A stretch of 14,589 bases of DNA from a virus (Duplodnaviria > Heunggongvirae > Uroviricota > Caudoviricetes), in the IMG/VR virus record IMGVR_UViG_2609459801_000008, one strand, 5' to 3'. Positions 10,134 through 13,233 of this stretch are shown here, piece by piece. The notes beneath the pieces are model-generated. The model saw nothing but the letters and a program-made list of their open reading frames with translations. It made no database searches and was not told the DNA's origin. A program made the position numbers and the translations under genes. The first letter of the stretch is position 1. Each line of letters begins with the position of its first letter.

Positions 10134-10228
10134 AGCCTCACCTCCGCAAATAACGGATGGTGTACACGGTTCGGAACGAAGAGGAAAGGTATAGAAGTTA
10201 CATTAGCGTAAGGCTTGAACATCTATTC

Positions 10229-10259
10229 AAAAAGAAAAACGCCGCGATTATTCTGGCGT
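10229..10259 (-). terminator. Weak candidate terminator after the AraC-like gene
   Basis: Minus strand reads ACGCC-agaataatcgc-GGCGT followed by TTTTCTTTTT. Short 5-bp stem with a long loop, so low confidence. Confidence 0.3.
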
Positions 10260-10320
10260 AGCTGAAAGCATCATACAATTATCAAATACGAAAATTACAA
10301 AATTATTAAAACGCATCACG

Positions 10321-10908
10321 TTACATCATGTCTTTTTCTAAAAAAAATCTTGATGAATATTGATGGGGAGGAACACCAAAATACCTTCTGAAAACACTTA
10401 CAAAATATGACGTGTTTTCATAACCGCATATCTCAGCAACTTTTCCAACAGAATATAAATTGTAGCTTAATAACCTTTCCGCCATCACCATTCGCTCTTC
10501 AAGAATTAACTTACTAAATGATAAGCCTTCGTGCTTTAATTTTCTTTTTAACAGACTTTCACTCAGATACAGTCTTGAAGATATATCACAAAGTCTCCAT
10601 GCTGCAGATATATCCGTGTGAATAATAGCCTTAACTTTACTTCCTAAACTATTAAGACATCCAAATAAAAAACTTTGCACTATTTTCTCTGAAGATAAGA
10701 TAGCAAGACATGCAAGTGATATTTGATTTCTAACAAAATCCACAGTTCTGCCATCACAATTCAAGCATGCAATCAAGTTCTTTAACAATGAAAAATCTTC
10801 ACATTCCACCATCAAGTATGCCGGATAAAACCTTCTTACAGAAAAAGGTGAGAGTGTGTTGCTTTTAAAGAAATCATTAACTGTTTTCTCTTCAACATCT
10901 ACGATCAT
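10321..10908 (-). CDS. AraC/XylS-family transcriptional regulator (short, 195 aa), horizontally acquired cargo
   Basis: C-terminal double helix-turn-helix typical of AraC family (…LSFSKLILEERMVMAERLL…VGKVAEICGYENTSYFVSVFRRYFGVPPHQY). Very AT-rich gene with a 490-bp AT-rich upstream region. An in-frame stop 14 codons upstream of the ATG excludes a longer N-terminus. Confidence 0.8.
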   Translation of the reverse strand: MIVDVEEKTVNDFFKSNTLSPFSVRRFYPAYLMVECEDFSLLKNLIACLNCDGRTVDFVRNQISLACLAILSSEKIVQSFLFGCLNSLGSKVKAIIHTDISAAWRLCDISSRLYLSESLLKRKLKHEGLSFSKLILEERMVMAERLLSYNLYSVGKVAEICGYENTSYFVSVFRRYFGVPPHQYSSRFFLEKDMM

Positions 10909-11401
10909 TACATGATCTATATTTGATGAAAAAAATCTTTTAAATTGTAATCAATGAGAACAGCACTTCCTTTTTAAACAAAATATCTTCTTTACCAATT
11001 CGGACATCAAACGAGTTCAACACCAAAATGATAGAACATATGTATGGCATATTATCCACCTGATATCATTGGGGTTACACCAGGTAAGTATAGGTGGAAA
11101 ATCAATATTCGCCAGTTCAACAATAAGGAAAATTTCATTGCATCACAAGTATAAAATTATGTATTTAACTCACAAAGACAAATTATTAAACCAATCTGTT
11201 ATATTATATATAGCTGCGTGGAATCATAATATTATATATTTTGACTGGCATGTTTACCAACTTTAAGTTGCATCTCAATTGTTTCTTCAGCGTAAACAGA
11301 GTTTTTATACAAACTGACACTCTGGGTATCATAGTGTAGTTTTTACGATTGTAAATATCCTGCATGCAGGAACTCATCCTTTTGGATGATATCGCATACA
11401 A

Positions 11402-12361
11402 TTAATTTACCATCAGTCTTAGAGCCAGTTCGTCCGGATAGGGATCGAAGTAATTCTGTGTAAGCAAGTAATCATTAGGATACTCACCCAGATAATGCTT
11501 CAGCAGAGTCAACGGCGCAAGAAGAGGTAATGTGCCAGAACGATAGTTAAGTATAACCTCGCTCAACTCTTTACGCTGGCGTGTACTTAAGTAGTTACTA
11601 AAATACCCCTGTATATGCATCAGCACATTCGTGTGATTTTTACGTGATGCAGGTTTTCTGAGAATCGCCATCAGCTTATCACGATACACCTCAAAGTATG
11701 ATTCAAGGTCCGCCCACTCGTGTATTGCAGCCACAAATGGTCCCATATCTTTATAGCCTGCCTGACTATGCGCCAACAACTGAAGCTTATAACGACTATG
11801 AAAAGCTAATAACTCTCTTCTTGATAATTTCTCCTTGTAAAGGTGATTGAGCTCATGCAAAGCAAAAACTCTTTCAACAAAATTCTCACGAAGCACTGGA
11901 TCATGTAATCGCCCATCCTCTTCAACCGGTAGCCAGGAAAACTTTTCCATCAAAGTGCTCGTAAATAGTCCCACTCCATCTTTACGACCTCGATTACCAT
12001 TTTCATCATAGACACGCACGCGCTCCATGCCACAGCTGGGAGATTTAGCACAAACCACAAACCCCGATACATCCTTTAATTTGTCCATATAAGAACGACT
12101 AAACTCTGTCATTCTCTCTGTCACATCCTCATTCTGGTCGTGGCTGAAACACATCCGTATATTTCCTTGCATCGAGCGCACAAGACGTAGAGCAGGACGC
12201 GGAACTGGCAGCCCTATAGCCATTTCCGGACATACTGGTCTGAATGTTACCCATTCCACTAATTTGTCCATTAAAAAGTCAGCTCTTTTGTGACCACCAT
12301 CAAAACGAACAGCAGAACCGGCCAAACAACCGCTGATTCCAATCACAGGTTTTTTTATCAT
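11402..12361 (-). CDS. DUF523/DUF1722 fusion protein (TudS-like Fe-S desulfidase-type N-domain, YbgA-like C-domain)
   Basis: 319 aa. N-terminus MIKKPVIGISGCLAG…PVCPE…CAKSPSCG has three or four spaced Cys as in DUF523 [4Fe-4S] proteins; the C-terminal half is helical. Strong SD (GGGGGAG) before ATG at 12361. Family call from memory of motifs. Confidence 0.7.
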   Translation of the reverse strand: MIKKPVIGISGCLAGSAVRFDGGHKRADFLMDKLVEWVTFRPVCPEMAIGLPVPRPALRLVRSMQGNIRMCFSHDQNEDVTERMTEFSRSYMDKLKDVSGFVVCAKSPSCGMERVRVYDENGNRGRKDGVGLFTSTLMEKFSWLPVEEDGRLHDPVLRENFVERVFALHELNHLYKEKLSRRELLAFHSRYKLQLLAHSQAGYKDMGPFVAAIHEWADLESYFEVYRDKLMAILRKPASRKNHTNVLMHIQGYFSNYLSTRQRKELSEVILNYRSGTLPLLAPLTLLKHYLGEYPNDYLLTQNYFDPYPDELALRLMVN

Positions 12362-12553
12362 ATTCTCCCCCTTGACTAATTCATTAACACATAAACTGTG
12401 TAGTGCACGGAATAAATTGCCTTTCTGGCGTCATCACTGACAATTTTTCTGTTATGGACTATTCCTAATATAGTATGAAAGTTCTTTAAGTGATCGGTCG
12501 TAATCATCTATCTTTCATACTTACTCTCAACTATCAAAAGTACAGGATTTATT

Positions 12554-13078
12554 ATGAAGTTATGGCCTGTGTTGACTGGCATTGCACTCTCTTTCACTCT
12601 TATAGCATGTAAGGCCCCGACACCACCTAAAGGTGTGCAGCCGATTACAAATTTTGACGCCAACCGCTACCTCGGAAAATGGTATGAAATAGCTCGCCTC
12701 GAGAACCGGTTCGAACGTGGTCTGGAACAGGTCAGCGCTACTTATGGAAAACGGAACGACGGAGGGATTCGTGTACTTAACCGTGGATACGATCCAACGA
12801 AAAATAAATGGAGCGAGAGCGAAGGTAAAGCATACTTTACTGGAGATACTAAAACTGCAGCATTGAAGGTTTCGTTTTTTGGCCCCTTCTATGGTGGCTA
12901 TAATGTAATCAAACTGGATGATGAGTATAAGTATGCTCTTGTCAGTGGTCCGAACAGAGAATACCTATGGATTCTGGCAAGGACCCCAACTATTCCAGAT
13001 AAAGTAAAAGCAGACTATGTGCGAACCGCTCAAAAGTTGGGATTCAATGTCAATGAATTATTATGGGTTAAACAATAA
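12554..13078 (+). CDS. Bacterial lipocalin (Blc-like) outer-membrane lipoprotein
   Basis: 174 aa. Signal peptide with lipobox LIAC (Cys19); lipocalin motifs NFDANRYLGKWYEIARLENRFE, KVSFFGPFYGGYNVI, EYLWILARTP, closely resembling E. coli Blc. The only plus-strand gene in the phage region, convergent with Q. Confidence 0.85.
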   Translation: MKLWPVLTGIALSFTLIACKAPTPPKGVQPITNFDANRYLGKWYEIARLENRFERGLEQVSATYGKRNDGGIRVLNRGYDPTKNKWSESEGKAYFTGDTKTAALKVSFFGPFYGGYNVIKLDDEYKYALVSGPNREYLWILARTPTIPDKVKADYVRTAQKLGFNVNELLWVKQ

Positions 13079-13103
13079 AATCCCTACCCGAAATAATACT
13101 TAT

Positions 13104-13133
13104 TAGAAAAAGACCAGCCTTTGGGGAGGCTGG
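13104..13133 (-). terminator. Candidate intrinsic terminator between Q and the cargo island (possible tR' equivalent)
   Basis: Stem CCAGCCT / AGGCTGG (7 bp) with a 6-nt loop; on the minus strand it is followed by TCTTTTTCT. Located about 100-130 nt downstream of the Q stop. Confidence 0.45.
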
Positions 13134-13233
13134 CTAAATCAGGAAACAAGCTGTTATATGATAATAACTACGTTGCGATTCCAACATTTAAAATGTTAGA
13201 CTAATGACAATCAGACAGCAACTTTTCCTTTAA

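Follow-up and report, generated by a model that had tools for sequence, protein, structure and literature searches.

The stretch of DNA analysed here (the window, 14,589 nucleotides) is a Caudoviricetes sequence from IMG/VR (record IMGVR_UViG_2609459801_000008), in which a 3.1-kb interval between the genes for antiterminator Q and the holin holds three genes: a lipocalin gene (a blc paralogue), a gene for a protein with TudS and DUF1722 domains (rudS) and an AraC-family gene (araC). The genes of the window lie mostly on the minus strand. The interval is composed of two independent modules, the blc/rudS pair and the AraC gene, and is not one system. We read it as a lysogenic-conversion (moron) stress cassette made of these two modules (probability of about 0.6), a reading built on the observed gene identities, their conservation and linkage, the origin of the pair and the decay of araC.

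The rudS product has an N-terminal TudS (DUF523) domain (PF04463, residues 7-149, E 4.5e-40) fused to a C-terminal DUF1722 domain (PF08349, residues 192-309, E 5.8e-41). This is the architecture of RudS, a TudS-DUF1722 fusion that removes 4-thiouridine (s4U) from tRNA (Jamontas et al., NAR 2024, PMC11417400). Aligned over its whole length of 319 residues, the window protein shares 93% identity with RudS_vir (gp66, H3V29_gp66), which is encoded by Escherichia phage 1H12, and the two genes, which belong to separate sequence lineages, share approximately 92% DNA identity. Overexpression of RudS_vir in E. coli lowered tRNA s4U (PMC11417400). Cys12, Cys44 and Cys110 are given for RudS_vir, and Glu51, Arg60, Ser111 and Ser113 are essential in RudS_KT (PMC11417400). 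In the window protein Cys12, Cys44, Cys110, Glu46, Arg55, Ser107 and Ser109 are all present and are invariant in 20 orthologues, the last four corresponding to the essential RudS_KT residues with an offset of 4-5. Judged by its sequence, the 319-aa protein is RudS, a predicted tRNA 4-thiouridine desulfidase. RudS is missing from laboratory E. coli, which carries DUF1722 only as the stand-alone protein YbgA, and BL21(DE3) served as the RudS-free host in the RudS study (PMC11417400). The Qin prophage of BL21(DE3) (NC_012971.2 1588189-1589585) has Q, an intact cassette lipocalin and a 147-nt (approximately 49-codon) 5' stub of rudS cut by the insertion sequence (IS) IS3.

The lipocalin matches PF08212 (Lipocalin_2, E 7e-44), the NCBIfam Blc subfamily NF007786 (316 bits against a cut-off of 267) and Blc chains of the PDB (E 3.5e-69). 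Direct reading gives the lipobox L16-I17-A18-C19 (MKLWPVLTGIALSFTLIAC-K), with Lys, not Asp, as the +2 residue. Identity is 82% to the rudS-linked lipocalin of an Enterobacter sp. and 60% to K-12 Blc (b4149); this last value and the prophage location led us to reject the gene as the orthologue of E. coli blc, for which high identity and a place next to ampC would be expected. The protein is instead a Blc paralogue of the rudS-linked type. Of 19 lambda-like phages isolated from infant stool, more than half carried blc, which a 2020 study listed as a moron (PMC6969025), and a paper on phiv142-3 orf6/orf10 that mentions a lipocalin was judged irrelevant.

The distribution of the cassette was surveyed in 5,426 complete E. 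coli genomes with a coverage threshold of at least 80%. The whole interval was found in 992 genomes, 1,156 had any part of it, Q, island and holin together were covered in 979, and rudS alone in 1,064. It occurs in three sequence lineages (at least 99%, approximately 94% and approximately 89% identity; lineages A, B and C are compared below) and in 12 isolated phage records, including phage 1H12, where gp65 (lipocalin), gp66 (RudS_vir) and gp67 (243-aa AraC) lie between Q and the holin. Among 80 IMG/VR contigs chosen for carrying rudS, blc was full-length in 79 and araC was found in 76, with a near-full-length unbroken match in 61. The order Q, blc (antisense), rudS, araC, holin was constant wherever the genes were found in these contigs, and the genes outside the block varied (rusA present or absent, two endolysin types). 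The backbones are DLP12-like, Qin-like (lineage B, strain Ecol_316) or lambda-like (Jouyvirus, IdasGreatGrand). Between lineages A and C the ratio of nonsynonymous to synonymous substitution (dN/dS) was 0.11 for rudS, 0.06-0.07 for blc and 0.25 for araC, at dS of 0.2-0.37; rudS and blc are under purifying selection. The three cassette proteins match PHROGs 1450, 3275 and 2809, all labelled 'unknown function', and the literature now supports names for at least the RudS and Blc families among them. A 3.2-kb contig of a 'Candidatus Nanosynbacter' metagenome-assembled genome (MAG), JARKOR010000151.1, carries rudS (94%), araC (98%) and holin (100%) of the cassette and is almost certainly a binning contaminant.

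The araC gene is a pseudogene in the window. Its C-terminal double helix-turn-helix is recognisable (HTH_18, E 6.5e-15; HTH_AraC, E 1e-11), and alignment with phage IdasGreatGrand, whose cassette is 99% identical, and with phage 1H12 places the start of the intact 243-aa gene at 11050. Two 1-nt deletions, A6 to A5 (10971-10975) and T8 to T7 (10929-10935), close the frame after 36 codons and leave the first 48 residues out of frame. The 195-aa open reading frame (ORF, 10321-10908) that the initial annotation took for a short AraC-family regulator is the tail of this gene, read from an internal ATG; a full-length AraC with its N-terminal domain is absent from the window and intact in phages IdasGreatGrand and 1H12. 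PGAP likewise calls a frameshifted pseudogene in the identical sequence of E. coli strain ET151. We counted alleles as exact matches to a 91-93-nt probe in the complete E. coli genomes, 911 of which carry the segment: the intact A6/T8 allele was present in 242 genomes, the T7 frameshift in 228, the double frameshift of the window (A5/T7) in 7 and A5/T8 in none. T8, T7 and T6 alleles were all seen among the 80 IMG/VR contigs. The T8 tract belongs to lineage A, and in lineages B and C the T-run is interrupted. The variation could be simple decay or slippage-driven on/off switching. In other genomes IS1 stands in place of araC, with blc and rudS intact. Insertions of IS1, IS2, IS3 and IS5/ISKpn26 are frequent within the island of many E. 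coli genomes and affect the rudS, blc and araC regions. Decay in related strains, which the initial annotation had named as evidence against a cassette, was accordingly found for araC only.

Intact AraC can be aligned over its full length with GadW, AppY and YdeO (32-34% identity), and it shares 54% identity with an AraC regulator that the OI-8 prophage of EDL933 encodes and that is presumed, by its position only, to be PatE. Scores against the NCBIfam equivalogs were far below the cut-offs (YdeO, 105 bits against 348; GadX, 86 against 500), the names of protein clusters yielded no curated name for the cassette protein, and PsrA was not found in EDL933 between 1.62 and 1.72 Mb. PatE, PsrB and AppY activate acid-resistance genes (PMC10877973, PMC10057817). 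The assignments to the Blc-like lipocalin, DUF523/DUF1722 and AraC families made before any database search were all confirmed by Pfam or NCBIfam matches (lipocalin, 7e-44; DUF523 and DUF1722, approximately 1e-40; HTH_18/HTH_AraC).

The interval is the classical moron slot of a DLP12-type late region, because homology to DLP12 flanks it on both sides and nmpC occupies the same place there, as the initial annotation had proposed. In the K-12 DLP12 backbone rusA-ylcG-quuD is followed by nmpC (opposite strand) and then by essD-rrrD-rzpD; the 3' end of Q in the window is homologous to quuD, homology stops just past Q and it restarts approximately 15 nt before the holin ATG. Several features that mark lambdoid Q-S morons were found: a position between Q/tR' and the holin, differing base composition, and other cargo in relatives (nmpC in DLP12). 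The coordinates are collected in Table 1. The region 9900-13700 is 100% identical to strain ET151, where the copy lies in a degraded prophage that occupies the lambda attachment site, with bioA/ybhB on one side and ybhC on the other. The G+C content of the whole interval is 38.2%, against 47-49% in the flanks, so the described AT-richness of the island stands, although it is uneven: 31.9% in both araC and the araC-rudS spacer, 43.3% in rudS, 43.8% in blc and 33.9% in the blc/rudS spacer. The low value is mainly due to araC and the spacer upstream of it.

Table 1. Positions of the cassette, its putative control elements and the late genes on either side (window coordinates).
Feature	Position	Strand	Description
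rusA	13834-14196		Right-most of the described late-region genes
Antiterminator Q gene (82/DLP12 QuuD type)	13234-13611	-	PF06530, E 2.5e-51; PGAP: antiterminator Q family protein; upstream boundary of cargo slot
Intrinsic-terminator-like hairpin and U-run	13105-13134	-	Between Q and blc; candidate tR' of the late promoter, putative function
blc paralogue	12554-13078	+	Predicted outer-membrane lipocalin lipoprotein (Lipocalin_2); antisense to late transcription
Divergent blc/rudS control region, 192 bp	12362-12553	.	33.9% G+C; blc-proximal half aligns with chromosomal spacers
rudS	11402-12361	-	Intact, 319 aa; Pfam 2-thiour_desulf (DUF523) and DUF1722
Promoter-like element TTTACA-16-TATGAT	11328-11355	-	Upstream of araC; best sigma-70 match in the region, 10/12; putative function
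araC (pseudogene)	10321-11050	-	AraC/XylS regulator, GadW/AppY/YdeO/PatE group; HTH_18; aligned with intact 243-aa alleles
Holin gene, S21-type (P21 S family), essD	9918-10133	-	PF04971, E 2e-35; downstream boundary of cargo slot
SAR-type endolysin gene	9421-9918		Left of holin
Rz	8960-9436		Left of endolysin

The hairpin between Q and blc is the sole terminator-like site in 9900-13700. An 8-bp GC-rich stem dominates its fold (-20.3 kcal/mol, z = -3.4), and its position fits tR'; it is kept in phage 1H12 and is not found at the corresponding point in DLP12. The hairpin after araC was weak and no better than in shuffled sequence, and Rfam and tRNA scans of the window found no RNA family and no tRNA gene. 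As previously noted, the lipocalin and DUF523 genes diverge from a shared region of exactly 192 bp, in which a promoter-like site (12530-12503) faces rudS. The promoter-like element upstream of araC lies within a block that lineages A and C share in a spacer that has otherwise diverged.

Next to these phage copies, we searched for chromosomal relatives by scanning one genome per species with the RudS alignment, which gave 80 species-representative rudS loci. The 27 chromosomal loci nearest to the cassette (RudS 68-76% identical) showed three contexts. In 13 species (e.g. Citrobacter, Klebsiella and Serratia) rudS is terminal in a cluster SnoaL, SDR, amine oxidase, DUF1365, cyclopropane-fatty-acid synthase, DUF2878, chalcone-isomerase-like and DUF3833. 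Another 13 (Enterobacter, Leclercia, Lelliottia, Buttiauxella, Raoultella, Huaxiibacter and Kluyvera) have, upstream of rudS and in divergent orientation, a lipocalin that shares 74-82% identity with that of the cassette. In two (Salmonella diarizonae and an Enterobacter MAG) an MlrA-like gene lies beside rudS in a flank without lipocalin. One Enterobacteriaceae genome (L117) has both DUF3833 and MlrA-like neighbours. A 174-175-aa gene upstream of Citrobacter and Klebsiella rudS was considered as a lipocalin and rejected, as it had no BLASTP similarity and only a weak chalcone-isomerase-like match. In 11 of the 13 loci with the divergent lipocalin an MlrA-like gene lies between it and rudS, often together with a transthyretin-like gene; in Kluyvera cryocrescens the lipocalin and rudS are directly adjacent, as in the phages. 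The Enterobacter-type loci (L109 3663-4898; likewise L110-L116, L127 and L137) encode a MerR protein with MlrA-type helical and C-terminal domains and a transthyretin/HIUase-family protein. The blue-light-linked BluR is of the same MlrA-like type, which points to possible control by light or cold. A MerR neighbour of rudS has been described in Enterobacter cloacae and in Salmonella (ORF242/ORF319), linked to a UVA-induced fall in s4U (PMC11417400).

In the half nearer to blc, the phage spacer can be aligned with the sequence between blc and mlrA in Enterobacter, Leclercia, Buttiauxella and Raoultella, and a TA(C/G)TATATT block is common to them. Given the divergent chromosomal pairs and the alignable spacer, the blc/rudS arrangement is ancestral; the pair entered the phage as a unit, minus its regulator, and AraC was added separately. 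The pair looks to have been captured from an Enterobacter/Kluyvera-type chromosome. The araC gene is a separate module because its G+C content and its divergence history differ and because its homologues occur elsewhere without blc/rudS. Lineages A and B share 99% DNA identity in rudS and blc, while their AraC proteins are only 86% identical. The araC homologues with approximately 52-54% identity (presumed PatE; phages ev099 and mEp332) follow tail-fibre genes, and the stretches examined around them contain neither blc nor rudS. The three-gene cassette of the initial annotation is thus partly right: the genes travel together (the whole interval in 992 of the 1,156 genomes with any part of it, in 12 phages, and in the same order in 80 contigs), but they are not one unit, araC being separate.

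From homology and layout we infer an expression pattern, a benefit to the lysogen and the AraC targets. RudS uses a [4Fe-4S] cluster to convert 4-thiouridine at tRNA position 8 to uridine. As s4U acts as a near-UV photosensor, whose crosslinking stalls aminoacylation and leads to growth delay and the stringent response, RudS would remove the photosensor, and a lysogen would be expected to have lower tRNA s4U and a shorter near-UV growth delay. Since laboratory E. coli lacks RudS, the prophage would supply a new activity. The cassette Blc would be exported as an outer-membrane lipoprotein, a lipocalin of the lysophospholipid-binding type, and would give the host a second, diverged copy. Where it is intact, AraC most likely acts, like PatE, PsrB and AppY, on the regulons by which the host responds to stress and resists acid. 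The rudS and araC genes are co-oriented with late transcription and lie downstream of the tR'-like terminator, so read-through from PR' by Q-modified polymerase is expected on induction, to which blc would be antisense.

Several points weigh against a stress cassette of benefit to the lysogen. The activity of RudS_vir was seen by overexpression only and was weaker than that of other orthologues relative to protein level, and erasure of s4U may be costly, since work in Salmonella cited in the same study found s4U protective against near-UV killing (PMC11417400). The prophage of the window is itself defective: the closest genomes match window positions 1-7300 in 2-5 pieces spanning 22-24 kb and have terminase, portal and capsid genes that are absent from the window, which has therefore lost its head module. 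The consensus scan returned 13 promoter-like sites, no excess over shuffled sequence (11.5 ± 3.8), and, as candidates for a promoter and terminator of the cassette's own, only consensus-level sites and conserved promoter-like blocks were found. Finally, the genome counts are uncorrected for clonal sampling.

The main rival explanation is that rudS serves the phage. After UV or SOS induction it would be transcribed from PR' with the lysis genes, and s4U would be erased so that UVA crosslinking and the stringent response spare late protein synthesis, RudS acting as an auxiliary editor of tRNA modification. The sense orientation of rudS downstream of Q and a tR'-like terminator, like that of stx in Stx phages, occurs in every lineage, including inducible plaque-forming phages, and s4U removal has been argued to relieve the UVA-induced slowdown of protein synthesis (PMC11417400). 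We nevertheless consider this unlikely: the orientation may be due to chance, one in two, the pair retains what appears to be its own chromosomal promoter block, and many defective prophages unable to finish a lytic cycle, that of the window included, retain an intact rudS under purifying selection. A broader version, in which a prophage induced by sunlight or UV expresses RudS late from PR' and strips s4U so that UVA crosslinking and the ppGpp response spare lytic translation, with the lipocalin and a slippage-prone AraC adding stress functions on the lysogen side, is slightly more doubtful still. A co-regulated system of three genes, with AraC controlling the divergent blc/rudS promoters, would explain the very tight linkage of all three, and AraC-family activators often act on AT-rich divergent spacers. 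It is improbable, however, since blc and rudS are intact and selected where araC is frameshifted (the window; 228 and 7 genomes) or deleted by IS1, since the chromosomal pair is accompanied by a MerR/MlrA-type regulator and never by a cassette-type AraC, since araC differs from blc/rudS in base composition and divergence history, and since the closest araC homologues lie in prophages, with no blc/rudS in the stretches examined.

Loss of function deserves consideration as well, as hitch-hiking DNA in slow decay could account for the dead araC of the window and of a large share of its relatives, the common IS1, IS2, IS3 and IS5 insertions in the island, the defective state of the window prophage and the bare blc and 5' rudS stub of BL21(DE3). 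The values of dN/dS for blc and rudS (0.06-0.11 between lineages, at dS of 0.2-0.3), the full-length blc in all but one of the viral contigs selected for rudS, the presence of the cassette in viable phages and the activity of an orthologous RudS enzyme (PMC11417400) make this account of the whole interval quite improbable; pure decay fits araC and is contradicted by the selection data for rudS and blc. The initial annotation had also mentioned an anti-phage module. Prophage moron slots often hold defence genes, and tRNA is a common battleground of phage and host, so that defence or counter-defence could be imagined, for example by altering tRNAs targeted in infection. This is very improbable: none of the three proteins matched a PADLOC model (E ≤ 0.01), and each comes from a housekeeping or stress family of which orthologues exist on chromosomes, outside mobile elements. 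We know of no defence system keyed on s4U8, which also counts against it. A lysogenic-conversion stress cassette of two modules remains our preferred reading.

The component families, and the assay of a RudS from the same cassette (phage 1H12), were already known. The statement that no phage function had been described for this gene combination is consequently outdated, as RudS_vir of the same cassette lowers s4U (PMC11417400) and blc is a catalogued moron (PMC6969025). New here are the frequency of the cassette in E. coli, the derivation of the blc/rudS pair from a chromosome, the composition from two modules and the recurrent inactivation of araC, that of the window included. RudS was described in 2024 as absent from E. 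coli, and approximately 1 in 5 complete E. coli genomes has a phage-borne rudS. The cassette offers a natural system for s4U erasure in vivo, in which lysogens can be compared with non-lysogens and intact alleles with IS-disrupted ones, and viable phages (1H12, IdasGreatGrand) carry it. The analysis also follows the loss of a MerR-type regulator from a chromosomal stress pair as the pair passed into a phage, and the set of PatE/AppY-like prophage regulators that may rewire the stress regulons of E. coli gains a further member, whose T8 tract is hypermutable. No concept is changed by this work, which provides a well-supported annotation.

Outside the cassette, a second AT-rich cargo gene, trkG (TrkH-family potassium transporter, 7365-8840, minus strand, 37.7% G+C), lies directly downstream of Rz and is present in only 3 of the 80 related viral contigs with the cassette. 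Three further ORFs occupy 5351-7227 on the minus strand, between the tail genes and trkG: one with a weak DnaT_2-like match (5351-5746), one for a TET-associated glycosyltransferase (TAGT) family protein (5724-6464, E 7e-35), a family linked to phage DNA hypermodification, and one for a ParB_N protein (6436-7227).

Among known systems the closest is RudS_vir of phage 1H12, which shares the cassette and its position (lipocalin, RudS and AraC, from Q to the holin), the length of 319 aa, 93% identity, the same Cys triad and the Glu, Ser and Arg residues; the window copy differs in belonging to another sequence lineage, in lying in a defective prophage and in having an activity that is predicted from its sequence. 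The chromosomal loci in which blc diverges from mlrA-like, transthyretin-like and rudS genes, with the ORF242-ORF319 locus of Salmonella pathogenicity island 2 (SPI-2), resemble the cassette in the divergent lipocalin and rudS (74-82% and 69-73% protein identity, respectively) and in an alignable part of the spacer. Unlike them, the phage version has neither the MerR/MlrA-like regulator nor the transthyretin-like gene, and among them Kluyvera alone likewise has the two genes side by side; the closest RudS sequences (76%, Citrobacter) lie instead at the end of the cyclopropane-fatty-acid-synthase/DUF3833 cluster. E. coli Blc (b4149; PDB 1QWD, 2ACO and 3MBT) is similar in its Lipocalin_2 domain, NCBIfam Blc subfamily, lipobox signal and length class, whereas the cassette lipocalin is 60% identical to it, is not beside ampC and is a second copy of the rudS-linked type. 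The AraC protein shares with PatE and PsrA/PsrB of enterohaemorrhagic E. coli, AppY of DLP12 and the host proteins GadW and YdeO a full-length homology that includes the N-terminal M..CS(V/I)IL..SF motif, and an AT-rich, prophage-borne gene; in contrast to PatE, PsrA/PsrB and AppY, the cassette araC lies between Q and S and not after tail fibres, and it is frameshifted in the window. With the Q-S morons nmpC (DLP12) and stx (Stx phages) the cassette has in common the slot, the backbone of DLP12 and the AT-rich, dispensable nature of its cargo, and it differs from them in being composite, with two modules of separate histories.

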